From Blastocatellia bacterium (GTDB lineage: Bacteria; Acidobacteriota; Blastocatellia; UBA7656), in assembly GCA_035537555.1 (NCBI GenBank), contig DATLMR010000420.1:1-50501 (forward strand): a DNA stretch of 50,501 bases, read 5' to 3'. Each line of letters opens with the position of its first letter. The stretch's first letter is position 1. Position numbers and translations under genes: made by a program. The notes beneath the pieces were generated by a model. It ran no database searches and was not told the DNA's origin. It was given only the letters and a program-made list of their open reading frames with translations. Positions 9,466 to 39,714 of the stretch are shown here, piece after piece.

Positions 9466-10956
9466 CTACTGCTGGGGCGGCGCGGCCTCTTCCTGAGGCG
9501 GAGGCGGCTGGCCGGCTCCGCCGGGAACTCCCTGAAGGCCGGGCATGGCCTGAGGCTCCACGGGCTTGGGATTGATCGTAAAGTCCTCCGCGACCTCGAT
9601 GTTGCTGGCGGCGGTGATCTCTTCGATGCGCTTTTCGAGCTTCTCTTTCTTCAGCTTGTCGGTGATCGTCTGCTTTATGCGCTCCTCGGTGACCGGGGCC
9701 GTGCGCTTGTCTTCCACCTTGATGATGTGATACCCGAAATCGCTCTCGACGACTCCGCTCACCTCGCCGGGCTTGAGAGCAAAAGCCGCCTGCTCGAACT
9801 GGGGAACCATCATACCCTTGCCGAAGTACTTGCTGGAATCGGACCCGCTCTCGTCCATCGCGACCAGGCCGCCTTCCGCCTTCGAGCCGGTGTCATCGGA
9901 AAGCTGCTTGGCGAGAGCGGCGAAGTCTTCTCCCTTGCGAATCCGCTCAAGGGTCGCCTCGGCCTTCTTGCGCGCTTCATCTTTGCTCATGCCCTTCGGC
10001 GCCGGCGCGCCCTCTGGCCCGGGTCCGCCGGGAGTCGTGCTGAAGAGTATGTGGCGCGCGCGCACTTCCTCGAACTCTCCCTTGTGCTCATTATAATAGG
10101 CGTTCACATCGGCGTCGGTGACCAGGGTAGGCGAGTTCTGCTGGTCCTTCATATAAGCCTGGAACAAGGCCTGGCTCCGGCCGATGAGCATCTTGAGCTT
10201 GACGCCTTCGTCCAGGTCGAGCTTATCGGCGCGGGCGCGCTCGGAGATGACTTTGATCTGGCCGAACTCCTTCTTCATCTGCTCGAGCGCCGGTCCCTGC
10301 GCCTGCGCCTTGAACTGGGGCTCGGAGTCGAGGAGCTGGTTGAACTCGTTAGGATGGGCCTGGAGGTATGTGTTCACTTCTTCGTCGCTAACCTTCAAGC
10401 CGGGGTTCTTCTTCTCGTACGCCTCGCGGAGCGCGAGATCGCTTTGAATCGCGATCTTCGACTGAACGTCCGGCTTGGCCGCGTACCCTTCCTTCTCGGC
10501 CTGCTGTGCGACGGCGAGTATCTGCTTGAGGGTCTTCACGAGGGTCTTTTTCTGCTCGGGGTTACTGGCGAGTTGCTGCTGCTGCATGGGCGGGAGCAGC
10601 TCGCTCACGAGAAACTCCATCTTCTTGGCGTCGAATTTTACATTGCCCAGCTCGCCTCCCCGGCCCATCGGCGACATCTGTGCCCAAATCATGGTGCCAG
10701 CGAGGGCCAGGACCACGAGTATGGCGGCGATTACTTTGCCCGAGACGCCCGACTTCTTCCTGGGCGCATAGGAAGCCGCGGCTGTCGCGGGTGCGCTCGC
10801 GGCTGGAGCCTCGGGCTCGTCCGCGGCCGAGTCATCCGCTACGACCCTGGGCGAATCGTCGCCCGACAGGGGCGTGGTGTCGAGAGATTCGGGCCCTTCC
10901 GCCCCCTCCGTCTCTATCTTGTCTTTTATATCGTCGTCATTGCTTGAATTAACCAT
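9466..10956 (-). CDS. Membrane-anchored parvulin-type peptidyl-prolyl isomerase (SurA/PpiD-like chaperone)
   Basis: One TM helix (VIAAILVVLALAGTMIW), a long helical chaperone region, the PpiC domain (ARHILF ... FGYHIIKVEDKR) and a Pro/Gln-rich tail. Confidence 0.85.
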   Translation of the reverse strand: MVNSSNDDDIKDKIETEGAEGPESLDTTPLSGDDSPRVVADDSAADEPEAPAASAPATAAASYAPRKKSGVSGKVIAAILVVLALAGTMIWAQMSPMGRGGELGNVKFDAKKMEFLVSELLPPMQQQQLASNPEQKKTLVKTLKQILAVAQQAEKEGYAAKPDVQSKIAIQSDLALREAYEKKNPGLKVSDEEVNTYLQAHPNEFNQLLDSEPQFKAQAQGPALEQMKKEFGQIKVISERARADKLDLDEGVKLKMLIGRSQALFQAYMKDQQNSPTLVTDADVNAYYNEHKGEFEEVRARHILFSTTPGGPGPEGAPAPKGMSKDEARKKAEATLERIRKGEDFAALAKQLSDDTGSKAEGGLVAMDESGSDSSKYFGKGMMVPQFEQAAFALKPGEVSGVVESDFGYHIIKVEDKRTAPVTEERIKQTITDKLKKEKLEKRIEEITAASNIEVAEDFTINPKPVEPQAMPGLQGVPGGAGQPPPPQEEAAPPQQ

Positions 10957-10959
10957 TAT

Positions 10960-11391
10960 CTAATCTCCTTCCGATGTTCTCGTCCTCTCAACCAGCTCGA
11001 CGAGAACTCCGTTCGCGCTCGCCGGGTGCAGAAAGGCCACTAACTTTCCCTCAGCGCCGGGCCGCGGATAACCGTCCAGCAGACGGGCTCCGCGCGACCT
11101 GAGTTCCTCTAATTTCGATGAGAGGTCATCGACCTCATAGCAGATATGATGCAGGCCCTCTCCGCGCCTGGCTATGAAACGACCGACAGGCGTATCCGCC
11201 GCAAACGGCTCCAGGAGCTCGATTCGAGACTCTCCGACGGGAAGCAGCGCGACGCTGACTCCCTGGTCCTCGACCCGTTCGGTCCCCGATATCTCGAGGC
11301 CGAGGCCGTCCCGGTAAAAGACTAATGACTCTTCTATCGAGCGGACCGCAATTCCAAGATGATCTATCTTCATAATAGCCGTCACAGGCAA
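10960..11391 (-). CDS. mce: Methylmalonyl-CoA epimerase (VOC/glyoxalase fold)
   Basis: IDHLGIAVRSIEE and EGLHHICYEVDD. The start may instead be the Met at 11373. Confidence 0.85.
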   Translation of the reverse strand: MPVTAIMKIDHLGIAVRSIEESLVFYRDGLGLEISGTERVEDQGVSVALLPVGESRIELLEPFAADTPVGRFIARRGEGLHHICYEVDDLSSKLEELRSRGARLLDGYPRPGAEGKLVAFLHPASANGVLVELVERTRTSEGD

Positions 11392-11424
11392 CGTGAGCCG
11401 GGGAGGAAGGCCCGGCCTTTCCGT

Positions 11425-12381
11425 CTAAATACCCAGCCTCTCGATTATCTCGTCCACGATCGAATACGGGTCGCGGCTGCGCGCGGCGACGGCTCCGGCC
11501 ATCTGCCGCAACTCGTCTTTCCCGACGCTCTTGTTCAATGCGACCCTGAGGAGGCGATCACGCAACATCTCAATTATCCGATGCTCTGCCACGCTGGCGC
11601 GCCTGCTGTCCAGCTCATTCTTGTGCGAAGAGATATAGTCCGCATAACTCTGGATGGCCCCCGCCAGGCTGTCCAATCCCCGGTCTTCAAGCGCGACGGT
11701 CTTGATTATCGGCGGGGTCCAGCCGTCGGGCCTATCGGAGATGGAAAGAAGCGTTTCGAGCTCTCTTTCCGTTCTCAGCACGCCTTCCCGGTCGGCCTTG
11801 TTGATGGCAAAGACATCTCCGATCTCCATAATCCCCGCTTTGATCGCCTGGATATCGTCGCCCATTCCGGGCACAAGGACGACCACCGTTACGTCAGCCG
11901 TCTTCACGATGTCTACTTCATCCTGTCCCACGCCAACCGTCTCAACAATGACCTTATTATACCCGCCCGCATCGAGTATCGCCACCGCATCGACGGTCGC
12001 CCGCGCAAGCCCTCCGAGGTTCCCCCGCGCCGCCATGCTGCGAATGAAGATGCCCGGGTCCATCGACATGCTCTGCATGCGAATGCGGTCCCCGAGGATC
12101 GCTCCGCCGGTGAAAGGGCTGGAAGGATCGACGGCGATGATGCCCACGCGCTCGCCCTGCGAGCGGTAGAAGGCGGCCAGCCTGTCGACGAGCGTGCTCT
12201 TGCCCGCTCCGGGCGCGCCGGTGATTCCGATGACCAGAGCCTTGCCGGTTTTAGGGAAAATCTCCTTGAGCAGGGCCGCGCCTTCCGGGCGCGCGTCCTC
12301 CACGGCCGTTATGGCGCGGGCGATCGAGAGCTTGTCGCCTTTGAGAATCTTCTCTGCTGCGGACGATTTTTGCGAACTCAT
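11425..12381 (-). CDS. meaB: Methylmalonyl-CoA mutase-associated G3E GTPase MeaB/ArgK
   Basis: P-loop GITGAPGAGKSTLVD, then VGVGQDE and NKAD G-motifs. Confidence 0.9.
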   Translation of the reverse strand: MSSQKSSAAEKILKGDKLSIARAITAVEDARPEGAALLKEIFPKTGKALVIGITGAPGAGKSTLVDRLAAFYRSQGERVGIIAVDPSSPFTGGAILGDRIRMQSMSMDPGIFIRSMAARGNLGGLARATVDAVAILDAGGYNKVIVETVGVGQDEVDIVKTADVTVVVLVPGMGDDIQAIKAGIMEIGDVFAINKADREGVLRTERELETLLSISDRPDGWTPPIIKTVALEDRGLDSLAGAIQSYADYISSHKNELDSRRASVAEHRIIEMLRDRLLRVALNKSVGKDELRQMAGAVAARSRDPYSIVDEIIERLGI

Positions 12382-27041: not shown

Positions 27042-27437
27042 GGCGTTTTCATCAACCTGCCCGCTCGACGGCGCGAAGCCTGCAAAGAACATTTCCAGCC
27101 GCGCGATCGATTGACGGCCCTCCCTGGAGCTAACGACACCCTCGGATATTGCGGTCCCGTGGCCTCCGCTTATATAGACGGAAGCCCGGGATCGTTGGTT
27201 ACGGAAATAAATGACCCGGGCCGTCACCGGATCGCCCCGAAGCCCGCATAACTTATGGACTAAGCGCGCGCCTTGCGACAGACCCGCGCGCCTCGCCCCG
27301 GGCTCGGAGCCTCTCGTTCGCGCCCCCTTCCGCCCTATGACGGGAAAGACAGATATATTGAGCAATGTTCGTGTTGCCAATCACCGGAGCGGTTCACTAC
27401 AATTGCTTGCGAAATTGCAGAGACGAGTGATGAGCCG

Positions 27438-28139
27438 ATGCCCTTTCCCGAAGCCGCGCGGGTTGAACTCCCGATATTACAGGAACTGGAAGCCACGGGA
27501 GGCAGCGACCAGCTCCGCTACCTCTACGGTCGGCTCGCGCGTCACTTTCCCCAGTTGACGCCCGAGGACCTCGGCGGGCGCGGCCGATGGCGGTTCGTGG
27601 TGCAGCGGGCAGGCAGCCAGCTTGTAGAGAAGGGGGACATGCGCCGGGAGCGCGCGAACTGGGTACTCACGGAGAAAGGGCGGAAGAGGGTCGAGGCGGA
27701 AGCCATGCGCTTGACGCCGCCTCACGCGCCGGTTGAAGGGCAGGGTCGCGCGGTCACGCATTCCGAAGCTCAGGAGATGCTCGTCGAAGTGGGACTGGCG
27801 CTCGGCTTTCACGCGGAGGCGGAATTCGAGTATTACGACGTCGTATGGCGCGAGGCTCCGTCGGCTCCCCGGCTCAGCCACGTCTTCGAAGTGCAGGTGG
27901 CCGGCAGCGTCGACAGCGCGCTCACGAGGCTGAAGCAGGCCTTCGACCTGCAACGCTCGCGCCTGTTCCTGGTCATCGCCGACGAGCGGGCGGGCAGGTT
28001 CGCGGACCGCCGGCTCGCCGGCTCTTTTCATGAGATATGGGATGAAGTGATCGTGATCGGCGTCGGCGAGCTGAAGCGATTTTATGATTCGATCAACGAG
28101 AATCGAGACCTTTTGGCAAGGCTGATCGGCAACAGGTGA
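27438..28139 (+). CDS. Mrr_N-like winged-helix + PD-(D/E)xK-like (restriction-endonuclease-fold) protein
   Basis: The N-terminal ~90 aa (LPILQELEATGG...WRFVVQRAGSQLVEKGDMRRERANWVLTEKG) match the Mrr N-terminal wHTH pattern. The C-terminus has E110, YYD134VVW and FE151VQ153V spaced like a nuclease core. The Met at 27438 is chosen over the Arg/Pro-rich upstream extension. Confidence 0.55.
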   Translation: MPFPEAARVELPILQELEATGGSDQLRYLYGRLARHFPQLTPEDLGGRGRWRFVVQRAGSQLVEKGDMRRERANWVLTEKGRKRVEAEAMRLTPPHAPVEGQGRAVTHSEAQEMLVEVGLALGFHAEAEFEYYDVVWREAPSAPRLSHVFEVQVAGSVDSALTRLKQAFDLQRSRLFLVIADERAGRFADRRLAGSFHEIWDEVIVIGVGELKRFYDSINENRDLLARLIGNR

Positions 28140-28186
28140 GCCTTGGGCACCGGCAATCCGGCAATGAAATTCTCGTCGCCTTAATT

Positions 28187-30739
28187 ATGACAACACCGCT
28201 TCGCCGTCAATACCTGGAGATCAAGAGCCGTTACCCGGGCATGATCCTGCTGTTTCAGATCGGCGATTTTTACGAAACGTTCGACGACGACGCCCGCACG
28301 ATATCGCGCGAGCTGGGCCTCGTGCTGACCCGAAAATCGTTCGGCAAGGGAAACGTTCACCCGCTCGCGGGCGTTCCCGTCCGCTCGCTCGAAAGCCATC
28401 TGTCGCGCCTCATCAATCGCGGTTACAAGGTCGCCGTCTGCGATCAGGTGACGCCTCCGGGAAAGGGCCTGGTCGAGCGCGAGGTTGTCCGCATCATAAC
28501 TCCGGGCACGGTGATCGAGGCGGGGCTCCTGGAGGGGCGGGCCAACAACTATCTGGCGAGCTTCATAATCGACGGCGGGCGGGCGGGGCTCGCATACGCC
28601 GACGTGACCACGGGCGAGTTTCGCGCGACGGAGCTCGACCGCGCGCAGGGGGCGGCGGAGCTTGAGAGGGTCTCGCCCGCCGAGCTGCTCGCGCCCGCGG
28701 GGACCGACCTTTCGGAGATCGAAGTGCGATCGGTGACCCGGCTCGCGCAAGAGGCCGAGCAACCGGACAGGGCGCGAGAGGCTCTGCGGGACCATTTCGA
28801 GGTCATTACGCTCGAAGCCTTCGGCTGCGAAGATAAGCCGCTCGCCGCCGCGGCGGCCGGGGCGATAATAGCTTACCTGCGAGACACGCAGCCCGACGCG
28901 CTCACGAACCTCGCGCACCTGCAAACCTACCGCGCGGAAAACTTCATGCAGCTCGATTCGCACACCATGCGTAATCTCGAGATCTTTCAGGGGTGGGATT
29001 TCAGCGGGGGCGCGCCCACGGGCTCGCTCGTCTCCACCATAGACCTCTCCGCGACTCCGATGGGCGGGCGGCTGCTCCGGCGATGGTTCCGCCACCCGCT
29101 CCTCGACCTCGCGGAATTGCGCGACCGCCAGGATGCGGTCGATTGGTTCTTCAAGCGCGGGCAGGCCCGCGAGCTCGTGCGGTCTCGCCTGGAGAACGTC
29201 CTCGACGTGGAGCGTCTGCTCGGGCGCATTCGTCGCCGGGTCGCCGTGCCTTCGGAGACCGTGGCGCTCGCCCACAGCCTCGGGGCCGTTGCCGAGCTCC
29301 GCTCGATACTGGAAGCGCATGGCGCTCCTTCCGAATACATCTCGCGGCTCGAACCGGTCGATTCGACCGTGGAGTACATCAATCGCGCAGTCTCCGACCG
29401 CCCTCCGTCCGACTTCGAGAGGGGCGGCATAATCCGGCCCGGCTTTTCAGCCGAGCTTGACGAGCTTCGAGCCACGCTCTCGGAAGGGCGGAGCTTTTTG
29501 GCAAGGCTTGAAGAGCGCGAGCGCAAGCGCACGGGCATCCGGTCGCTCAAGGTAGGCTATAACAAGGTCTTCGGCTATTACATCGAAGTCACGAGACCGA
29601 ACCTGCGCCTCGTCCCGCCCGACTACATCAGGAAGCAGACTCTTACGAACGCCGAGCGGTTCTTCACCCTTGAGCTGAAAGAGCACGAGGCCCTCATCGC
29701 GAACGCGCGCGCGACCATCATCGAGCTCGAAGCCAATCTATATAGACAGGTGCTCGACGAGATCGGTAGCAGGCAGGAGACCATAAGTCGCGTGGCGTCG
29801 GGCCTCGCCCGCATCGACCTGTACGCCGCTCTGGCGGAGTGCGCCGCGCGATTCAATTACGCGCGCCCGGAGCTGGACGAAGGCGACGAGATCGCCATAG
29901 TCGGAGGGCGGCACCCGATGATCGAGGAGATGCTGAAAGGCCGCGCGTTCACGTCCAATGATACGCGGCTTTCGAACCGGGACGTGCAGATCATGCTGTT
30001 GACCGCGCCGAATATGGCCGGAAAATCGGTCTATCTCAGGCAGGTGGCGCTCATCTGCCTCCTGGCCCAGATCGGCAGCTTCGTTCCCGCGGCCTCCGCG
30101 CGAATAGGCGTGGTCGACAGGATCTTCACGCGCATCGGGCTGAACGACTACACGCTTCGCGGCCATTCGAGCTTTATGATAGAGATGATCGAGACGGCGC
30201 ACGTGCTTCACAACGCGACCCCCCGGAGCCTCGTGCTGCTCGACGAGATAGGGCGCGGGACCTCGACCGCCGACGGCCTCTCTATCGCGCGCGCCGTGGT
30301 CGAATACCTGCACAACCATCCGAGGCTCGGCGCGAAGACCCTGTTCGCCACTCACTACCACGAGCTCACGAATTGCCCGGATTACCTTCCGAGGGTTCGC
30401 AACTTTCATCTGGCCGTGCGCGAGCGCGGAGGGAAGGTCCAGTATCTTCACCGAGTCGAGGCCGGCAAGGCGGAAAAGAGCTTCGGCACGTACGTGGCTA
30501 AGCTGGCCGGCCTGCCCAGGCCCGTGCTCCGCCGCGCGGAGGAGCTGCTCGCGGATTATGACGTGAAGAAGAGCTCCGCCGGGCAGTCCGCCAACGGCTC
30601 GGAGGACGTGTCGGATTCCTTCAAGCCCCTGCTCGATTCATTGATCGGCCTCGACATCAACGACATGAGCCCGGTCGAAGCGCTGACGAAGCTCTTCGAG
30701 CTGCAACGCAACGCGAAAGAGATCAGAGGGGCAGGCTGA
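28187..30739 (+). CDS. mutS: DNA mismatch repair protein MutS
   Basis: IGDFYETFDDDA mismatch-binding motif, Walker A TAPNMAGKS and LLDEIGRGTST. Start at MTTPLRRQYLEIK. Confidence 0.95.
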   Translation: MTTPLRRQYLEIKSRYPGMILLFQIGDFYETFDDDARTISRELGLVLTRKSFGKGNVHPLAGVPVRSLESHLSRLINRGYKVAVCDQVTPPGKGLVEREVVRIITPGTVIEAGLLEGRANNYLASFIIDGGRAGLAYADVTTGEFRATELDRAQGAAELERVSPAELLAPAGTDLSEIEVRSVTRLAQEAEQPDRAREALRDHFEVITLEAFGCEDKPLAAAAAGAIIAYLRDTQPDALTNLAHLQTYRAENFMQLDSHTMRNLEIFQGWDFSGGAPTGSLVSTIDLSATPMGGRLLRRWFRHPLLDLAELRDRQDAVDWFFKRGQARELVRSRLENVLDVERLLGRIRRRVAVPSETVALAHSLGAVAELRSILEAHGAPSEYISRLEPVDSTVEYINRAVSDRPPSDFERGGIIRPGFSAELDELRATLSEGRSFLARLEERERKRTGIRSLKVGYNKVFGYYIEVTRPNLRLVPPDYIRKQTLTNAERFFTLELKEHEALIANARATIIELEANLYRQVLDEIGSRQETISRVASGLARIDLYAALAECAARFNYARPELDEGDEIAIVGGRHPMIEEMLKGRAFTSNDTRLSNRDVQIMLLTAPNMAGKSVYLRQVALICLLAQIGSFVPAASARIGVVDRIFTRIGLNDYTLRGHSSFMIEMIETAHVLHNATPRSLVLLDEIGRGTSTADGLSIARAVVEYLHNHPRLGAKTLFATHYHELTNCPDYLPRVRNFHLAVRERGGKVQYLHRVEAGKAEKSFGTYVAKLAGLPRPVLRRAEELLADYDVKKSSAGQSANGSEDVSDSFKPLLDSLIGLDINDMSPVEALTKLFELQRNAKEIRGAG

Positions 30740-30799: not shown

Positions 30800-31207
30800 T
30801 CATTTTTCTCGACCCCGGCCTTTCAAGATTCTGTGGCCGCTTCTCTCCAGAGCCGTGACGGCTTTATCTAAATCCCCGCTCTTCACCAGCACGTAATCCG
30901 TATCGTAAGTCGAGACGGTGAAGATGCTGATGCCTGCCTCCGCCAGAGGCGTAAGGATGGAAACCAGGATTCCCACGAGCGAAAAGTCGAGGGGGCCTTC
31001 GACCTTCAGGCACCTCCAGCCCGGCTCGCCGGTCACCCCTTCGGGCACGAGCGATTCGTCGGAAACGATTGAGAGCTCGTCGCGAGTGCGGGTTATCGAG
31101 ACCAGGGAGCCTCCGGATGCCCAGGCGGGAACGGGCGCGCCCGCGCCCAGGCGGGAGACCGCGAAGCTCTCCGGAAGAATGCGAATTATAAGGCCGGGAT
31201 CGGTCAT
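30800..31207 (-). CDS. ACT-domain protein (ACT_7/CASTOR-like)
   Basis: 135 aa. SIVS..., then KVEGPLDFSLVGILVSILTPLAEAGISIFTVSTYDTDYVLV, a typical ACT beta-alpha-beta-beta-alpha-beta pattern. Confidence 0.7.
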   Translation of the reverse strand: MTDPGLIIRILPESFAVSRLGAGAPVPAWASGGSLVSITRTRDELSIVSDESLVPEGVTGEPGWRCLKVEGPLDFSLVGILVSILTPLAEAGISIFTVSTYDTDYVLVKSGDLDKAVTALERSGHRILKGRGREK

Positions 31208-31244: not shown

Positions 31245-31895
31245 TCAACGCTTCGGCAGGACCGAAACGACGACGGCGAAGTAGTGGCAAATGCTTCCGG
31301 CGAGGACGAACAAGTGCCAGATGGCGTGATTATACGGGACCTTCCGGCAGGCGAAGAATACTATCCCCACCGTATAGGCGAGCCCGCCCGCCACGAGCCA
31401 GGCGAAGCCGCCCGGCGGCACCAGCGCCAGGATCGGCTTGATCGCCACTATCCCCAGCCAGCCCATGAGCAGGTAGACCACGGTCGAGGCCACGGCGAAC
31501 CTATCGACGAAGAAGACCTTGAAGACGATTCCGAGCGCCGCAAGGATCCACACCGCCGCAAACAGGCTCCAGCCCCACGGGCCTCGCAGGTTGACGAGCG
31601 TGAAAGGCGTGTAGGTCCCGGCTATGAGCAGGTAGATGGCGGAGTGATCCAGGATGCGAAGGGGCCGTTTCAGGTGCAGGGCCTTGAAGCTGTGATAGAG
31701 GGTCGATGCGCCGTAAAGGAATATAAGGGTCGCGCCGAAGATCGAGCACCCGGCGATGTGCCACGCGTCGCCGCGTATGACGGAGAGCACCAGGAGCACA
31801 AGAAAGCCGGCTATGCTCAAGGCGAGCCCGAGCCCGTGCGTGATGCTGTTGAGCAGCTCTTCGTACACCCACCGCGATCCTTCGGTTAAGTTCAT
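31245..31895 (-). CDS. Hemolysin III / PAQR-family 7-TM protein
   Basis: 216 aa, about 7 TM helices, with NSITHGLG near the N-terminus and HLFVLAGSICHY near the C-terminus. Confidence 0.85.
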   Translation of the reverse strand: MNLTEGSRWVYEELLNSITHGLGLALSIAGFLVLLVLSVIRGDAWHIAGCSIFGATLIFLYGASTLYHSFKALHLKRPLRILDHSAIYLLIAGTYTPFTLVNLRGPWGWSLFAAVWILAALGIVFKVFFVDRFAVASTVVYLLMGWLGIVAIKPILALVPPGGFAWLVAGGLAYTVGIVFFACRKVPYNHAIWHLFVLAGSICHYFAVVVSVLPKR

Positions 31896-31931: not shown

Positions 31932-33638
31932 CTACCTGATGTAAGGGCGCAGCTCTTCGATGCGCTGGCTCAGCTCCATCGGCGAGAGGTGGCGATACCT
32001 TTGCGGCACCATCTCTCGCGAGGTGGCCTCACGGGCGGCCACGAGCGTCTGGTACTCCACTGCCATCTCGTCGCGCGCCGGGGTGAATTCGCTTGCGACC
32101 TGCTGAACGTCGGCCTGACTGACCGTAGCCCTCCCGGCGACGCGAGCCACGCGGCGCGCGCGTATCAGCATCGATTCGATGTCGGCCCCCGAAAGCGTGA
32201 TGCTGGACTTGGTGATCGGGGCCCAGTCTTCAACTTCGTGGGTGATATTGTTCTTCCTTATCATCGCTTCGACTATGGCCATGCGATCTTCTTCGGTCTC
32301 CGGGTAGAAGAGCGATATGTGCTCCTCGGCTCGGCCCTGGCGCTTGAGGTCGATCGGCAGCAGGTCGGGGCGACTGGTCATCAGTATCCATAGAATGCGC
32401 CCGCGATTTCTGGTATCGCCCATCGCCGCCGCGAGCTTCGAGAATATGCGCGAGTCCACGCCTGAATCGCCCCCCGCCTCGCGCGAGCCGAGCGTTGCGT
32501 CCGCTTCGTCCACGATCACGACTATGGGCGCGAGGGTCTGGAGCAGGTTCAGGATCTTTTCAAGGTTGGCTTCGCTCGACCCGACCCATCGCTCGCGAAA
32601 GTTCTTGAAGGCGACGACATTCAAGCCGCAATCGTGCGCGAAGCTCTCGGCGAGAAAGGTCTTGCCCGTGCCGACCGGCCCCGAGATGAGAATGCCCATA
32701 GGGGCCTCCTCGGTATTCCCGAGGCGGATGGTCTCCGAGATCGAGCGCAGGTACTCTTTGGCTTTGGCCATGCCGCCGACCGAGTCGAGCCCGAAGCGCG
32801 GCTGGACGAACTCGACGAGGCCCACGGTCTCGGCTTCGATCAACTCCTTCTTCTTCTGCCGGACCTTGTCGAGCGTGAGGGTCCCTCCTTCGGTGACGGC
32901 CCCGCGAATGAGCGAGTTCAGGTGGACGCGATTGAGGCCCGAGGTGACGTGCGACATCTGCTCGTCGGTCACGTCGCTCAGAAGCTGCGGCAGCTGGCCG
33001 CGCATGTGGCGGATGAATTCGAGCCGCTCCGCGTCGTCGGGGTAGGAAATCTCTATCGCCGCGAGCCTGGAATTGTTCCGGATTCGCGGGTGTACTTCGG
33101 CGACGCTTTCGGCGATCAATATGACGATATTGTCTTTCTTGAGCAGCCTTGAGCTCGTGATCCATCTCTGCATGGAGACGAGGTTGGTCCGGTCGTCTCC
33201 CGACATGTAGCTGATGTCGCCCGCCGGGATTATCGTATCAAGAAAGTTGATGATGACGGCGACCTGATCTCCATAGAGCAGGAAATGCTCTATCAGAGGA
33301 ATGGCGCGCGAGGGATCTTTCGGCAGTTGTTTGCTCGCCTCGCGCCCGGCCAGAGGGTCGGCCACGCGCAGCTGCGCCATGAAGGCGCGCTCGGCTTCCG
33401 ACGAGCCGAACTTGATGCCCTCGCTGCGATTATAGGTCAGCAGATGTTTCGTGCCGACGAGCTCGCGCTGGAGGTAGTTGGGCAGGCTGATGTATTCGGA
33501 GCCCGAGCGCACGAGGTCGTAGATGTTGTTATATAAAAGGAAATGGCTCGATTCCCCCGAGTAATACTTCCTCGCCATTCTCGCGGCCCAGGGAGGAAGC
33601 TGGCTGATATCGTCTATTAGTAATCGCGTTCTCGACAT
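31932..33638 (-). CDS. Classic-clade AAA ATPase with degenerate N-terminal pseudo-AAA domain
   Basis: Walker A GPVGTGKT (aa 320-327), Walker B VVIVDEAD (373-380), sensor-1/SRH LMTSRPDLLPIDLKRQGRAEEHISLFYP. The N-terminal ~270 aa keep an AAA-like strand pattern (FLLYNNIYDL, VAVIINFLD, NIVILIAES, ISYPDDAERLEFI) but have no P-loop. No GAFTGA motif. Confidence 0.85.
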   Translation of the reverse strand: MSRTRLLIDDISQLPPWAARMARKYYSGESSHFLLYNNIYDLVRSGSEYISLPNYLQRELVGTKHLLTYNRSEGIKFGSSEAERAFMAQLRVADPLAGREASKQLPKDPSRAIPLIEHFLLYGDQVAVIINFLDTIIPAGDISYMSGDDRTNLVSMQRWITSSRLLKKDNIVILIAESVAEVHPRIRNNSRLAAIEISYPDDAERLEFIRHMRGQLPQLLSDVTDEQMSHVTSGLNRVHLNSLIRGAVTEGGTLTLDKVRQKKKELIEAETVGLVEFVQPRFGLDSVGGMAKAKEYLRSISETIRLGNTEEAPMGILISGPVGTGKTFLAESFAHDCGLNVVAFKNFRERWVGSSEANLEKILNLLQTLAPIVVIVDEADATLGSREAGGDSGVDSRIFSKLAAAMGDTRNRGRILWILMTSRPDLLPIDLKRQGRAEEHISLFYPETEEDRMAIVEAMIRKNNITHEVEDWAPITKSSITLSGADIESMLIRARRVARVAGRATVSQADVQQVASEFTPARDEMAVEYQTLVAAREATSREMVPQRYRHLSPMELSQRIEELRPYIR

Positions 33639-33704
33639 AAGGGTTCATCGGACGTGAATCGGATCGAGGCCGGGCCAGCTCGGCAAGCGCGCCCCGCCCC
33701 GGGC

Positions 33705-34553
33705 TCATTGTCTTTGAGGGATGGGAGGCCGCATCTGCTGCTGCGACCTCTCCAGGGAATCGAGCTGGTTCAAGACGGGATTGGTCTCTTCCAGGATCTC
33801 CTTCGTCATCTCGATCGAAGAGAGCAGGGATTCGAAATCGAGCGACGAGAGATGCTCGGGCGTCGGCATCGTGACGACCTGATCGTTGACGAGCCCGAAG
33901 AAGCTCTCGATGGATTGGAGCTGCGCTTCGACGCGCCTCATCGACCGCTCGATGTCGGAGTAGGTCTGGAGCCGTTTTTGCAGTATTTCATAATTCTTTT
34001 CGTAAAGGCGGCGGGTGTCTTCATCCGGGGCGGACTTGATGGAGCGCTCGGCCTGCTGGATCTGGTTCTGGATCGTCTGGCGGTTGATCGAGCGGACGTG
34101 GTTCTTCCGCCTTCGGTAGATATCGAGCAGGTCGACGTAGGATTCCCAGATGGTATCGAGGCGGCTGATGCTGTCGGGCATGACCGAGACCCGGGTGAAT
34201 TTCTGATAGTTCTGGTAAATCTGGTTCTTCATCCATCGAAGGTACTCGACGGCCTCGCGCTCGCGCGGGTCGAATCCCTTGATCAGCTCTTCGCGCTTGC
34301 GCCCGCGCTCGGCCATCTCGCGGTGCCGCATGCGCCGGTCCACGATGCGGCGGTACTGCGTGGTAACGGGGAGGGTGGAGAGGTAGAGCGCCTCGGCCGC
34401 GGCCCCGGCGGCGAGCGGCACCCAGGAGAGGTCGAACCAGCCGATCGGAGCGGCCGTCGCGGCATAGACGGACGCGGCGACAAAACCGACCATGGCCCAG
34501 ATGTTCAACGGCTCTTTCACAGCCTCTTTGATGTAATTGTATTGTTCGGGCAT
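33705..34553 (-). CDS. Hypothetical 2-TM protein with ~210-aa helical/coiled-coil cytoplasmic domain
   Basis: Two N-terminal hydrophobic helices (IWAMVGFVAASVYAATAAPIGW; WVPLAAGAAAEALYLSTL), then an R/E/Q-rich helical region with heptad-like periodicity. No family recognised by eye. Confidence 0.65.
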   Translation of the reverse strand: MPEQYNYIKEAVKEPLNIWAMVGFVAASVYAATAAPIGWFDLSWVPLAAGAAAEALYLSTLPVTTQYRRIVDRRMRHREMAERGRKREELIKGFDPREREAVEYLRWMKNQIYQNYQKFTRVSVMPDSISRLDTIWESYVDLLDIYRRRKNHVRSINRQTIQNQIQQAERSIKSAPDEDTRRLYEKNYEILQKRLQTYSDIERSMRRVEAQLQSIESFFGLVNDQVVTMPTPEHLSSLDFESLLSSIEMTKEILEETNPVLNQLDSLERSQQQMRPPIPQRQ

Positions 34554-34695
34554 AACAGACAGCTCTCAACCCCAAGCTATTTTGCCTCGGCTTCAATAGC
34601 TTCGACATTCCTCAAGTGCCGGGCCTTTCGACTTCCGGCTCTTCGTCTTCAAATAACCGCTTCGATCCGTCCGCAATCGTGTTGCGGGTTGTCGA

Positions 34696-35454
34696 TTATT
34701 CGAGCGCCTTCGCCTTGTCGGACGGCCCCAGAGACTTCCCCGCGACCTGGTCCGACTCTATCACCGGCGGGCGAGGGGCTCCGGCATCGACGCCGAGACC
34801 CATCTGCCTCTTGTATGCCGACAGAGTGTCTTCCACCTGAATGTTTAGTGACTCCCGCTCGATGTCCTGAATCTGCGCTTCCGTGCCTGAGGTCGCCAGG
34901 TCCATCCGGGCTTCGGCGGCCGCGGAGCGACGCTGGATCTTCTCGCGCATCTCCTCGAACGTGCCCGCGTCGTCGCCGATCTGGAAAGAGGCCATGGTCT
35001 GAGCCAGTTGCTCCTGCATCTTGGTGGCCCGGGCTTCGTTCACCAGATGCTGGGCTTCCGCCGTGCGCTTCTTGACCTGAAGAATGTAATTCTGAAGGAA
35101 TTTCTTGGCCTGCTCGGTCGCGGCGGTCGCCGTCAGCAGTTGGGCCTTAGAGCGATCCAGGGCGGTCTGTTTCTCCTGCAACGCGGAGATGTAAGTCTTG
35201 GCTATGTCGTCGCGGCCCTGCTTGATGGCGGCCTTGATCTTGGCGTCGTAATCGATTATCTCTCGTTCGAGATTGCCGACCTCTCTTTGCAGCAGCTTCT
35301 CCGTGGCCATTACCTGAGCGACGTTGTTCTGCATCTGCGGGACCTTCTCGCGCATGTCGCGAATGGTCTGTTGAAGGATCAGCTCCGGATCTTCCGCGCT
35401 CTCGAGTATCCCTCCGAATACAGAACGGAACAGCCGTTTGAGTCTATTCCACAT
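34696..35454 (-). CDS. pspA: PspA/IM30/Vipp1-family protein (ESCRT-III superfamily)
   Basis: The N-terminal amphipathic helix MWNRLKRLFRSVFGGIL is followed by the hallmark AEDPELILQQTIRDMRE and long coiled-coil helices; 252 aa. Confidence 0.9.
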   Translation of the reverse strand: MWNRLKRLFRSVFGGILESAEDPELILQQTIRDMREKVPQMQNNVAQVMATEKLLQREVGNLEREIIDYDAKIKAAIKQGRDDIAKTYISALQEKQTALDRSKAQLLTATAATEQAKKFLQNYILQVKKRTAEAQHLVNEARATKMQEQLAQTMASFQIGDDAGTFEEMREKIQRRSAAAEARMDLATSGTEAQIQDIERESLNIQVEDTLSAYKRQMGLGVDAGAPRPPVIESDQVAGKSLGPSDKAKALE

Positions 35455-36205
35455 CTCTCCTCCTAAGTTTGCAGGCCCTCGACCCGGGATGCTGCCGATT
35501 CAACGGCCGAAATGCCCACAGCTTCAATTTAACGACTCTCGCGGGGCGAGGTTTTCAGGTTTCTGAAGTAGTCTACCATAACAGTTGACCTCCGGAAATT
35601 TGAAACGCGCCGAAACCCCCCGATTCGACCGCCGGGCTCTTCGAGCCCGCGGGTCCATATCTTTATGAAAAAGGAAGCGGGATAGAAAGCGAGCCCCGGA
35701 CGGGAGGTACGTGAGGCGAGCCCGTCCACATATCTGCTTTCGAGGCCCGGTCTTCGATCTTGCGCGGTAAGTTTAAGCATTCCGCCCCCGTGGGGCTTTC
35801 CTCGATCCTCTTGAACTCTCTCGCCTCAACTTTCTGAGGCACTTGAGCATACGCAGTTCGGGGGGCCGTTGTTCGAACAACCGTTTGATCGGAATATTGC
35901 GCCGCTCGATCCGGATAGCTATAACTGGGACAGGCGAAACAGGGGGGCGGGTAACGGCCGCGTTCGGTATCAACTGCTCTGTTGAGCAGTTGCGGGCTTG
36001 TCGTTCCGGTTTGTTAATTATACGGATCGGATTCGCGAGCACGCCCTCTGACGGAAGCCCCGGCCCCGTTACGAGCCCGAACCCCTCCTGGTTGCCGTCT
36101 AAGAATCGGTTTGCTATGATTGCCCGTCGCCGAGAGCGGAAACTCTCGTGGTCTTGCCAGGTTGAAGATGATTAGTGAATGGCCATTTAACCGAATACCG
36201 GAGTA

Positions 36206-37356: not shown

Positions 37357-39714
37357 ATGTATTGCAATCAATGCAACCTGGAGTTCCCTGAAGGCCTTCG
37401 CTACTGCAAGTGGTGCGGGGAGGAGCTGGTCAAGAGCCGCCGCGTGACGAGCGAGCTGCGGACCTGCGCGTCCTGCTCGGCGGCGGTCCATCCGGATTGG
37501 ACCTATTGCAAGGCATGCGGCGTGCGGATAGTTTCGGCCGCGCCCGAGCCCGCGACGGCCACCTGCGGAAGGTGCGGGGCCGCCAACGGTCCCTCGTCCA
37601 TCTATTGCTCGGTCTGCGGCGAGAGTCTCTTGCTGCAAGGCGAACCCGAGAAGGCCCAGCCGGGCACGGCCGTCATCAATCGTTGCGAGTCCTGCGGCGA
37701 GCACCTTGATTCTCTCACGGGCTACTGCAAGATGTGCGGCGCGGCTGCCCAGCCTGCGGCCCATCCCTTCGGCGCGTCTTCGCTGCTCTGCGGCCAGTGC
37801 CAGAGCTACAGCCCCGTCGGCTCGTCGGCGTGCAGGGTATGCGGGGCCCTCCTGATCGAGACCGGAGAGGCCGATTCGCGCGAGGAGCGCAAGTCGAGCA
37901 CGCTCCCGGACCTCGCGGACCACCTGCCCGGGCCGGAAGCCGCCCTGACGGAACCGGCTCCCGGAGCCGATTATATGCATGACCTGACCGACACGGGCCT
38001 CGTGCGATCAGGAGAGCAGACGGCGATCTTTCCCGCCCCGGAGCCCGCGGCTCCCCCGGCGGAGGAGAGGCCCTCGCCGCCCAGAAGCGCATACGAGACG
38101 ATCGAAACCAGGATACCGAACCTGGACCTGAAGCCCAGGGGCGGCGCGGAGACCGGCGTCCTGCCCGGTGGTGCCGGAGCGCCTTCCGAGCAGGTCTCCA
38201 CCACCCACCTCGGCCAGGGCCGGACCACAGGGCCGGTCGATCCTTCCGAGGAGAGCGAGCAGATGTCCGAATCGGGCGAGCTTCTCGCGCGGCTTGCAGA
38301 TCCAATCGGCGCCTTGTCGGCCGGTTCGCCTTCGGCTCGGGAGCTGGCTTCCACCGAGCTGATCGGGACCGGGTCCCGGGCTCAGGAAGAAGACGAAAAT
38401 GCTACCGTCGAGTCCGAAGTTAGATTGACTCAGTCCATATACGGCGCGGACGACGGCGCCGTCACCGGGCTCAATACCTCGATGCCGACCGCTCCGCAGA
38501 AAGAGGGATTCACCGCGCCGTTCGGCCTCGATTCTTCGACGCTCGAAGCGTCCTGGCAGGACAAAGACGAGACTCGCAACATCTCGCAACCCGACCCCGA
38601 GACCCTGCCGATCGTGGCCATGCCCGGAAGCCGGGTCGAGAATCCCACCGTCGAGATCACGAGCCCGCAAGAGCAGCGAGAGCAGCGAGAGCAAAACAAG
38701 ACCGAATCCTTCTACGGCGAGACTTATCCGCAGGCCCCGGAGACCGCCGTCCTCGGTAATGACTTCACGCGTGAAGGCAGGGTCCACGAGGCAGAGCCCG
38801 TAGCGGAGCAGGCAGCAGAGGTGTACGAGGCTCCCCGGAAGCGGAGTAATCTGCCGATAATTTTATCCCTCGCGGTCGCGCTTCTCGTGATAGGGGCCGC
38901 CGTCTACATCGGGTGGAGATTCCTCGCGCCTGATCCGAGAGCGCGAAGTCAGGCGCAGACGCCGTCCGAGCCGGTCAAGCCTGAAGAGCCGGCCGCCCAG
39001 GCTCCCGCGCCCGCGCCGCCGGCCGGGCCGGTCGCGCCCGAAGGAATGGTGCTGGTCGCCTCGGGGACTTACACCATCGGTCGCGACGTAAAGGGCAATT
39101 ACGAGAGCCCCGCGCATTCTGTCGCGCTCGCGCCTTTTTCGATCGACCGCACGGAAGTCACCAACGCGGCCTATAAGCAGTTCATAGATGCGACCGGGCA
39201 CGAGCCTCCGGGCGATTGGAAAAACGGTACTTTTCCGGAAGGTCAGGGGAAGTATCCCGTGACGGGGGTCAGCTGGCAGGATGCTTCCGATTATGCGAAG
39301 TGGGCGGGCAAGCGGCTTCCGACGGAAGAGGAGTGGGAAGCGGCGGCGCGCGGGGCCGAGGGCTTGATTTATCCGTGGGGCAACGAGTGGAAGGCGGGGC
39401 TTGCCAACATCGGCACGAAGTCGATTACGGAAGTGGGCCAGTTTCCGGCGGGAGCGAGCCCTTCCGGCGCCCTGGATATGATAGGCAATGTCTGGGAGTG
39501 GACCGCCGACGAGTTCCATCTCTATCCCGGCAACACCGAGCAGGAGCCGGAGAACATAAAGCAGGCCTCGCTCTTTCGAATCATACGCGGCGGCGCATAT
39601 GACGGCAGTAAGATTCACACCGCGACCTACAGGGGCTTCGTCGAAGCGGACAGCCGCAAATATAACAAGACGGGCTTCCGCTGCGTTAAGAGCGCGGGAG
39701 GCGGCGGGAAGTGA
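37357..39714 (+). CDS. Five tandem zinc-ribbons + long disordered linker + TM + extracytoplasmic FGE/SUMF1-family domain
   Basis: Five CxxC-N10-13-CxxC units in aa 1-165, an acidic/Pro-rich low-complexity region, a TM helix (LPIILSLAVALLVIGAAVYIGW), then the FGE-sulfatase fold (GNVWEWTAD, RIIRGGAY, GFRCVK). Confidence 0.85.
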   Translation: MYCNQCNLEFPEGLRYCKWCGEELVKSRRVTSELRTCASCSAAVHPDWTYCKACGVRIVSAAPEPATATCGRCGAANGPSSIYCSVCGESLLLQGEPEKAQPGTAVINRCESCGEHLDSLTGYCKMCGAAAQPAAHPFGASSLLCGQCQSYSPVGSSACRVCGALLIETGEADSREERKSSTLPDLADHLPGPEAALTEPAPGADYMHDLTDTGLVRSGEQTAIFPAPEPAAPPAEERPSPPRSAYETIETRIPNLDLKPRGGAETGVLPGGAGAPSEQVSTTHLGQGRTTGPVDPSEESEQMSESGELLARLADPIGALSAGSPSARELASTELIGTGSRAQEEDENATVESEVRLTQSIYGADDGAVTGLNTSMPTAPQKEGFTAPFGLDSSTLEASWQDKDETRNISQPDPETLPIVAMPGSRVENPTVEITSPQEQREQREQNKTESFYGETYPQAPETAVLGNDFTREGRVHEAEPVAEQAAEVYEAPRKRSNLPIILSLAVALLVIGAAVYIGWRFLAPDPRARSQAQTPSEPVKPEEPAAQAPAPAPPAGPVAPEGMVLVASGTYTIGRDVKGNYESPAHSVALAPFSIDRTEVTNAAYKQFIDATGHEPPGDWKNGTFPEGQGKYPVTGVSWQDASDYAKWAGKRLPTEEEWEAAARGAEGLIYPWGNEWKAGLANIGTKSITEVGQFPAGASPSGALDMIGNVWEWTADEFHLYPGNTEQEPENIKQASLFRIIRGGAYDGSKIHTATYRGFVEADSRKYNKTGFRCVKSAGGGGK

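Follow-up and report, generated by a model that had tools for sequence, protein, structure and literature searches.

The locus described here offers a compact three-gene system, with a candidate recognition motif, through which the disassembly or powering of bacterial ESCRT-III polymers (PspA, Vipp1) may be approached. The window, by which we mean the whole stretch of DNA analysed, comprises 50,501 nucleotides of contig DATLMR010000420.1 from a Blastocatellia bacterium (Acidobacteriota; assembly GCA_035537555.1), and it carries three consecutive genes encoding the membrane-repair protein PspA, a helical protein with two transmembrane (TM) helices that we call TM2, and an AAA ATPase. A previous sequence-only reading of this stretch had seen in them a candidate membrane-remodelling module resembling ESCRT-III and Vps4, with the caveat that the architecture might have been catalogued already. 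This was indeed the case: the computational study of Ravi et al. (2024, mSystems, PMC11237479; preprint 2020) lists PspA together with a membrane-anchored helical protein and a protein joining an inactive to a classical AAA domain, and infers that membranes are remodelled at the expense of ATP, much as by Snf7 and VPS4. The same analogy is thus published, and the idea is not new, having been in print since the 2020 preprint. A literature search on PspA-linked AAA unfoldases found no experimental characterisation, and the sequence-only reading knew of none. The PspA-TM2-ATPase system is real and conserved, and was already predicted in print; what is added here is the Cdc48-type assignment of the ATPase, a Snf7 label that we could not confirm for the TM protein, the tail motif of PspA, more operon variants, a conserved promoter block and the depth of the synteny.

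The ATPase resembles Cdc48 in architecture

The C-terminal half of the ATPase contains an AAA domain (PF00004, residues 316-442, E 3e-26), referred to here as D2. The motifs from which the sequence-only reading had placed the protein in the classic AAA clade were all located (GPVGTGKT at residues 320-327, VVIVDEAD at 373-380 and SRPDLLPIDLKRQGRAEE at 422-439), and this placement holds. Both Walker motifs are intact, pore loop 1 is aromatic, the second region of homology has two Arg fingers (R433/R436), and SGAD stands at residues 483-486 (LSGADIE) instead of the sensor-2 Arg. Pore loop 1 reads RWVG in the window and K-Y-V-G in the family consensus. The catalytic and threading residues of D2 are invariant across 72 homologs, down to ~35% identity (alignment A2). 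The preceding domain (D1) has LLYNNIYDLV in the place of Walker A and IINFLD in the place of Walker B, and canonical ATP hydrolysis by D1 is therefore not possible. An AlphaFold2 (AF2) model built from the 72-sequence alignment (mean pLDDT 85.5) aligned as a whole with both AAA domains of p97/Cdc48/Rix7 (Foldseek, 577-610 columns, E 6e-23, TM-score 0.55-0.60), which suggests that residues ~28-270 adopt a D1-like AAA fold, in agreement with the tandem pseudo-AAA/AAA arrangement proposed before. The D1 region alone recovered 559 cluster representatives at E<=1e-10 among 1.84 billion, most of them 560-620 aa long, and judged by sequence it defines a sizeable family of its own; the cluster look-up for its distant relatives returned almost no annotation.

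The best PDB sequence matches of the ATPase are the D2 domains of Cdc48/p97 (E 2e-42). Among the NCBIfam models it scores 96 bits with CDC48 (TIGR01243, cut-off 803), 85 with PAN, 77 with FtsH and 41.7 with CdvC (NF041006, cut-off 650), all far below the family cut-offs, and the family placement of D2 rests on these profile bit scores rather than on a tree. No MIT domain, by which Vps4-family proteins bind the MIM motifs of ESCRT-III, was found by Pfam, residues 28-270 folding as the AAA-like domain instead; there is no Vps4-type beta-domain, the small subdomain (residues 449-567) being all-helical in the model, and no N-terminal double-psi barrel, D1 starting near residue 28 after a short conserved N-terminal helix. 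Pfam also gave no PF00158, HTH or other DNA-binding domain, and the sequence holds no GAFTGA. Because MIT, beta-domain, double-psi barrel, sigma54-activator and HTH features are all missing, the ATPase is, by its sequence and predicted structure, a distinct Cdc48-type protein with a dead D1 and an active D2, and can be counted neither among the orthologs of Vps4 nor as a PspF. The earlier statement that it is not a PspF-type sigma54 activator stands, therefore, whereas its likeness to Vps4 at the family level has to be abandoned (two cassettes, no MIT or beta-domain, 41.7 bits with CdvC against 96 with CDC48). Its nearest relatives are proteins from metagenome-assembled genomes (MAGs) of Blastocatellia and other Acidobacteriota, with the closest locus 94% identical and most others ~78-86%.

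PspA and its C-terminal tail

The identification of the first gene as PspA/IM30 is confirmed (PF04012, PspA_IM30, 107.3 bits versus a cut-off of 33.9, residues 2-217), and phmmer aligned residues 2-218 or longer of its product with the solved Vipp1/PspA chains 6zvr, 8qbw and 7o3w (E 6e-17 to 5e-16). PspA/Vipp1 proteins polymerise on the membrane via the alpha0 helix, and the N-terminal amphipathic alpha0 of the window protein, MWNRLKRLFRSVFGGIL, lies within the span aligned to the solved chains.

Beyond the last conserved helix (LSAYKRQMGL) the window PspA has 32 additional residues, made up of a linker and the motif GKSLGPSDKAKALE. A tail with a conserved EK[ST][LIM]G core was present in every ATPase-linked PspA that we extracted, reading EKSLGPSDRAKALE in Blastocatellia, EKTIGGKEPQRTS in Terriglobia and Bryobacteraceae, QKTLGSREGVKS in the clade with ABC/FtsX and kinase genes and EKTIGHKEREKA in an unclassified bacterium, with TKELGPEKVTE and EKEMGPATIK as the versions of Deltaproteobacteria/Myxococcota. 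The PspA of E. coli terminates right after the equivalent helix, with neither tail nor motif. From these sequences, it is plausible that the EK[ST][LIM]G tail is the handle by which the ATPase engages PspA.

The two-TM protein

TM2 belongs to no Pfam or NCBIfam family. Its AF2 model is all-helical (pLDDT 75), with the two TM helices at residues 15-34 and 40-63 followed by helices at 65-92, 96-120, 127-155, 158-173, 178-228 and 240-273. A strongly basic stretch follows the second TM helix, which would put the helical domain in the cytoplasm, and the sequence is consistent with an N-in/C-in topology. TM2 homologs adjoin the ATPase gene in both Acidobacteriota and Myxococcota. In three loci the N-terminal motif and TM hairpin occur as a separate open reading frame (ORF) of ~66 aa (E 4e-10; L091 609-809, L092 1407-1607, L098 376-582), so that the hairpin is apparently a separable module. 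Within the second TM helix (34371-34424, residues 44-61) Glu54 is invariant, as are G50, Y57, L58 and P62; to judge from this pattern, Glu54 could serve in sensing or interaction.

In Ravi et al. (PMC11237479) the gene of the TM protein is labelled 'SIG+TM+Snf7' (divergent Snf7), an assignment that was not reproduced for TM2. Comparison by hhalign of the TM2 alignment (A4) with that of the linked PspAs (A3) gave a probability of 0.95%, a profile search of the PDB with TM2 retrieved zero ESCRT-III chains at E<=10, a Pfam scan of 17 TM2 members at E<=10 gave zero Snf7 or PspA matches, and the best Foldseek matches of the model were generic coiled coils (best E 0.09), with a CdvB2 filament at rank 43 (E 0.7). 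The long helices 127-173 and 178-228 of the model could form a hairpin, and as helical hairpins are hard to detect, this failure is not a refutation. Two further candidates were discarded. An NCBIfam match of TM2 to LiaX was weak (E 0.004, 16 bits versus a cut-off of 350), and an RPP-hydrophobic C-terminal motif shared by PspA and TM2, considered as a MIM2-like signal, was rejected as the RPPV of the window PspA is not conserved in its orthologs. The tail of TM2 is itself conserved as RPP[ILV]AQRQ in Blastocatellia and as RxR[ILV]RN in Terriglobia, and unconserved in Myxococcota.

Conservation of the gene neighbourhood

The comparison covered 155 related loci of genomic and metagenomic origin, in which genes were identified by Pfam and by profiles of our own. 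In the 72 loci that extend 5 kb or more upstream of the ATPase gene, PspA was found upstream on the same strand in 64 and TM2 in 60, an arrangement that is not due to chance. The contiguous PspA-TM2-AAA trio was present in 51 loci, most of them from Blastocatellia.

Five operon types could be distinguished. The first is the trio of Blastocatellia, as in the window. The second, found in Terriglobia, Bryobacteraceae and Myxococcota, encodes PspA, an NMT1-type binding protein fused to OmpA, a permease, an ABC ATPase, TM2 and the AAA protein. In the third (L153, a myxobacterial-type contig) the order is PspA, AAA, a small ORF, binding protein/OmpA, permease, ABC and TM2, so that the six-gene set appears in Myxococcota in two different orders. 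In the fourth (L061, L063) the AAA gene comes immediately after PspA, a direct adjacency that is also seen in L153. In the fifth (L091, L092, L098), PspA and the 66-aa homolog of the TM2 hairpin are followed by a large ABC ATPase with a permease of FtsX/MacB type, then by a Ser/Thr kinase bearing PEGA domains and finally by the AAA protein. A trio co-occurring in at least two phyla, in several gene orders, is what the gene-neighbourhood comparison put forward by the sequence-only reading has yielded, and a linkage kept despite such shuffling across phyla points to a functional connection. This cannot be said of the two genes that follow in the window, trhA and the gene of an ACT-domain protein, which had been included in a tentative five-gene operon. 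Their spacing (36 and 37 nt) was correctly given and trhA is probably co-transcribed here. However, trhA adjoins the ATPase gene in 25 of 105 loci and the ACT gene lies downstream in 13 of the 105, hence both are ruled out as core members by synteny and a five-gene operon would exist at most in close relatives.

The operons described by Ravi et al. (PMC11237479) agree with the window in all three components, including the tandem of dead and active AAA domains. Their extended example, OGG56892.1, is matched gene for gene by relatives of the window (PspA, PBPB+OmpA, permease, ABC, TM protein, AAA), from which the window itself differs in being a minimal trio without transporter, and in coming from Blastocatellia. 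Neither the PspA tail motif nor the variant with MacB/FtsX and kinase was met in the passages of that paper that were consulted.

Some loci deserve a separate mention. Acidobacterial ATPase homologs 59-67% identical to that of the window have no PspA or TM2 upstream in L042, L081 and L082, and could be paralogs or relocated copies. The neighbour of the ATPase gene in L042 (4837-5670) encodes an ankyrin-repeat protein, the neighbours of the ATPase gene in L082 (upstream of 6001) are housekeeping genes (thymidine kinase and IspF/YgbB), and the small ORF upstream of the ATPase gene in L081 (upstream of 6001) has no Pfam family. Eight MAG records labelled 'uncultured Clostridia bacterium' (L012, L026, L031, L037, L040, L053, L068, L069) encode ATPases 67-85% identical to the Blastocatellia one, most within the same operon, and their Clostridia labels look wrong. 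In the Myxococcota loci L151 and L152, carbamoyltransferase and radical SAM genes come directly after the ATPase gene, and genes for PspC-domain and LiaI/LiaF-like TM proteins (10838-11761) are located ~4 kb downstream of the PspA-ABC-TM2-AAA operon.

What the ATPase may act upon

From the gene identities, the domain architecture, the catalytic and pore motifs, the linkage and the conserved tail we infer the following course of events, including the formation of a hexamer, the interactions, the identity of the substrate and the direction of action. PspA, TM2 and the ATPase would make up a three-part stress module of the cytoplasmic membrane, in which PspA would polymerise via alpha0 on damaged or curved inner membrane and TM2, inserted in the membrane and exposing its helical domain to the cytoplasm, would give PspA, the ATPase or both a local anchor or receptor, a role functionally comparable to that of LiaI, PspB/C or CdvA. 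The ATPase would most likely be a Cdc48-like hexamer, in which a D1 ring of structural function, unable to hydrolyse ATP, is stacked on an active D2 ring that threads polypeptide through the aromatic pore loop RWVG. Its likeliest substrate is PspA, presumably engaged by the flexible C-terminal tail with its EK[ST][LIM]G core, and ATP hydrolysis would extract and unfold subunits, the PspA polymers being disassembled, recycled or remodelled as a result. The most economical way to read these data is that PspA assemblies are remodelled mechanically, and Ravi et al. arrived at the same functional inference independently. The specific form of this reading, in which TM2 marks or anchors the site, PspA polymerises there and the D1-D2 hexamer threads PspA from the tail to disassemble or remodel the polymer, is the best supported of those considered here but is put forward tentatively, with chances that we consider nearly balanced and leaning slightly to the doubtful side. 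A broader formulation, that of a bacterial, ATP-driven and Vps4-independent ESCRT-III machine whose Cdc48-type unfoldase, placed at a two-TM receptor, recognises the tail motif and threads PspA for turnover or for scission and repair, appears possible but distinctly doubtful.

Several points weigh against the remodelling model. Neither an MIT domain nor any other domain that could be recognised as binding PspA is present in the ATPase, and a similarity of TM2 to ESCRT-III/Snf7 could not be shown. The control for the specificity of the tail is one non-linked PspA, that of E. coli, and with a single control its restriction to ATPase-linked PspAs is suggestive. Closely related, and hence phylogenetically non-independent, Blastocatellia MAGs account for most of the loci, so that the synteny counts overstate independence. 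Members of the ATPase family are found with no PspA nearby in Bacteroidota (L059, L060), Spirochaetes (L062) and in L042, L069, L081 and L082, which indicates that this family is not exclusively a partner of PspA. Finally, most lineages other than Blastocatellia have an ABC transporter inside the operon, which the sequence-only reading had not foreseen, so the substrate of the ATPase could be something else.

What else it could be is, in the first place, damaged or mislocalised membrane proteins, which the ATPase docked on TM2 would extract or unfold in the way of Msp1, Cdc48 or an FtsH without its protease, while PspA, a co-regulated stress partner but not a substrate, seals or stabilises the membrane in parallel. 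Such a quality-control role would suit an ATPase that is nearer to Cdc48, PAN and FtsH than to Vps4, has no ESCRT-III-binding domain and belongs to a family lacking PspA in some lineages, as well as operons that hold envelope machinery (OmpA-fused binding protein, ABC, FtsX/MacB, PEGA kinase). We consider it unlikely, as it leaves the tail motif of the ATPase-linked PspAs unexplained and the minimal operons join PspA to the ATPase alone (L061, L063, L153).

The same envelope genes raise the question of whether the ATPase and TM2 serve the co-encoded ABC transporter or an envelope-spanning complex, by assembly, gating or recycling. That complex would then be the ancestral core, the trio would be a reduced remnant and PspA would be a co-induced protectant and nothing else. 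In Terriglobia, Bryobacteraceae and Myxococcota the ABC ATPase gene is indeed followed at once by the TM2 and AAA genes, and the TM2-like hairpin precedes the ABC/FtsX pair in the operon type with the kinase. The window and 51 related loci, however, keep PspA-TM2-AAA with no transporter gene in the operon, nor is there one elsewhere in the 50-kb window, and it is PspA that is kept in every architecture whereas the type of transporter varies (NMT1/OmpA or MacB/FtsX), all of which makes transporter service a still less likely explanation than quality control.

Another kind of relationship is known from E. coli, where PspA is a negative regulator that represses the AAA+ protein PspF (PMC7619361). 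By analogy, PspA could inhibit the ATPase of unstressed cells and be titrated away under membrane stress, freeing the ATPase for other targets, and the conserved linkage is equally compatible with such a pairing. Still, the present ATPase is of a different AAA clade with no sigma54-interaction features or DNA-binding domain, and PspF is contacted through the PspA hairpin and not through the C-terminal tail, so we regard regulation of this style as improbable. That the AAA ATPase is the centre of an anti-phage system, or of a conflict system of another kind, is very improbable indeed, since the similarity to IetA/IteA models is weak and generic (49 bits in PADLOC, 48.8 in NCBIfam versus a cut-off of 510) and limited to the AAA fold, PspA and TM2 have no PADLOC matches, the context is one of housekeeping genes (mutS, polyprenyl synthase) with uniform GC, and the module is vertically conserved within Blastocatellia.

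The remodelling of PspA by the ATPase, as the sequence-only reading had interpreted these genes, thus retains a conserved module and a classic AAA protein with intact threading motifs, and loses the kinship with Vps4 and the five-gene unit, while the mechanism keeps the standing of a proposal.

Genomic context and regulatory elements

The features of the locus are collected in Table 1. The coordinates of the three co-directional genes are exactly those first reported, with gaps of 142 and 66 nt, and the intergenic distances along the series pspA/TM2/ATPase/trhA/ACT, all on the minus strand, are 142, 66, 36 and 37 nt. All five ORFs show a coding-type excess of GC at third codon positions (GC3 0.72-0.84, in a sequence of 61% GC). 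The mutS gene (28136-30739, plus strand) is convergent with the cluster, and a polyprenyl synthase gene ~750 nt upstream of pspA is divergent from it.

Table 1. Position and main characteristics of the features described at the PspA-TM2-ATPase locus (window coordinates).
Feature	Position	Strand	Description
pspA	34696-35454	-	252 aa; PspA/IM30, ESCRT-III superfamily; PF04012, 107 bits
PspA C-terminal tail motif GKSLGPSDKAKALE	34699-34740	-	Residues 239-252; preceded by a variable Ala/Pro-rich linker; candidate ATPase handle
TM2 (gene of the two-TM helical protein)	33705-34553	-	282 aa; conserved N-terminal motif, TM hairpin, ~215-aa helical domain predicted to be cytoplasmic
TM2 TM hairpin	34365-34511	-	Residues ~15-63; alignments A1 and A4, model helices 15-34 and 40-63
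ATPase gene (type-II AAA)	31932-33638	-	568 aa; degenerate D1 and active D2, no N-terminal substrate domain
ATPase D1 pseudo-AAA domain	32829-33557	-	Residues ~28-270; alpha/beta secondary structure; structural alignment to p97 D1
ATPase D2 active AAA domain	32079-32801	-	Walker A 320-327, pore loop 1 RWVG 350-353, Walker B 373-380
trhA (PAQR/HlyIII membrane-homeostasis protein)	31245-31895	-	216 aa; NF011669, 269 bits
ACT_7-domain protein	30800-31207	-	135 aa; PF13840 and PF21631; lineage-specific downstream neighbour
Promoter-like block upstream of pspA	35571-35606	-	GTTTCAAATTT... followed by TG-n-TATGGT, extended -10-like

The regions upstream of pspA were taken from 52 loci, and up to 28 distinct sequences among them were aligned with MAFFT. 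Some 120 nt ahead of the pspA start, the Blastocatellia loci share a block that reads GTTTAAATTT... TG-n-TATGGT, from which a 5' untranslated region of ~120 nt would extend, with a conserved CCTCGCCCCGCG element that forms a CTCGC/GCGAG hairpin in the window (region 35455-35700, minus strand). A strong Shine-Dalgarno sequence, AGGAGG, is found 5 nt upstream of pspA. No sigma54 -24/-12 element is evident in the conserved upstream region, and the block looks, from its sequence, like an extended -10 promoter of sigma70 type rather than a sigma54 one, in keeping with the lack of a PspF. When the operon itself was scanned for terminator and promoter consensus sequences, nothing exceeded shuffle expectation. 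A 6-bp hairpin (CCGCAA...TTGCGG, 34670-34698, minus strand) lies 8 nt after the pspA stop and has no T-run, the 145-nt intergenic RNA reaching a z-score of only -2.5; it might modulate the ratio of PspA to downstream expression. The Rfam scan of the whole window gave zero matches.

Two other genes in the surroundings are worth recording. A 288-aa ORF (27273-28139, plus strand) with a weak Mrr_N match (E 8e-5, below threshold) overlaps the start codon of mutS by 4 nt, suggesting translational coupling with mutS. Further away, a 785-aa protein (37357-39714, plus strand) combines N-terminal double zinc ribbons, a long low-complexity region rich in Pro, Ala and Glu and one TM segment with a C-terminal FGE-sulfatase (formylglycine-generating enzyme-like) domain, an unusual fusion.

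Comparison with known systems

Reviews later than the study of Ravi et al. take another view, and a Vps4-like ATPase 'appears absent in bacteria' according to one of 2025 (PMC7619361), which also describes how the hexamers of classic-clade AAA proteins translocate their substrates and how Vps4/CdvC disassemble ESCRT-III via C-terminal motifs. The locus studied here resembles ESCRT-III with Vps4/CdvC in that the gene of a putative polymer-former of the ESCRT-III superfamily lies beside that of a classic-clade AAA unfoldase, a short conserved motif is carried on the flexible C-terminal tail of this polymer-former, and there is a membrane-associated third partner, TM2 being comparable to CdvA. 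It differs in that its ATPase is built of two cassettes, the D1 being dead, lacks MIT and beta-domain and is closer to Cdc48 D2, and in that its polymer-former is of the PspA type and not of the Snf7 type. In its mode of action the module would thus parallel ESCRT-III/Vps4, but its motor, of Cdc48 type, would have been recruited independently and would not be homologous at the motor level, and any similarity to the Vps4 system would be functional convergence or parallel recruitment. If this were true, bacteria too would follow the principle of an ESCRT-III polymer with an AAA motor, a result of relevance to how membrane remodelling evolved, the pairing of an ESCRT-III polymer with a classic AAA motor having either evolved at least two times or preceded the split between bacteria and archaea.

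With Cdc48/p97/VAT the window ATPase shares the alignment across D1-D2 and the presence of pore loop, Arg fingers and SGAD, but not the double-psi-barrel N domain nor the Walker A and B motifs of D1, its D1 being a separate family. The E. coli PspF-PspA(BC) system is similar in its genetic coupling of PspA with an AAA+ protein and with small membrane proteins. There, however, PspF is a sigma54 enhancer-binding protein with HTH and is divergently encoded, whereas the window ATPase shares an operon with PspA and is an unfoldase of the classic clade, PspB/C are absent from the window and the conserved promoter looks like one of sigma70 type. In Bacillus, the small membrane protein LiaI anchors the PspA homolog LiaH, and TM2 could be likened to it as a small membrane anchor for a PspA homolog, although no homology to LiaI was detected. 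The literature search for a link between Ycf46 and Vipp1 found none. An ATP-driven chaperone does assemble and disassemble Vipp1 oligomers in Chlamydomonas, namely HSP70B with CDJ2 and CGE1, and in comparison with that system the putative motor of the window is an AAA unfoldase, encoded in the operon of the polymer-former itself, instead of an Hsp70.

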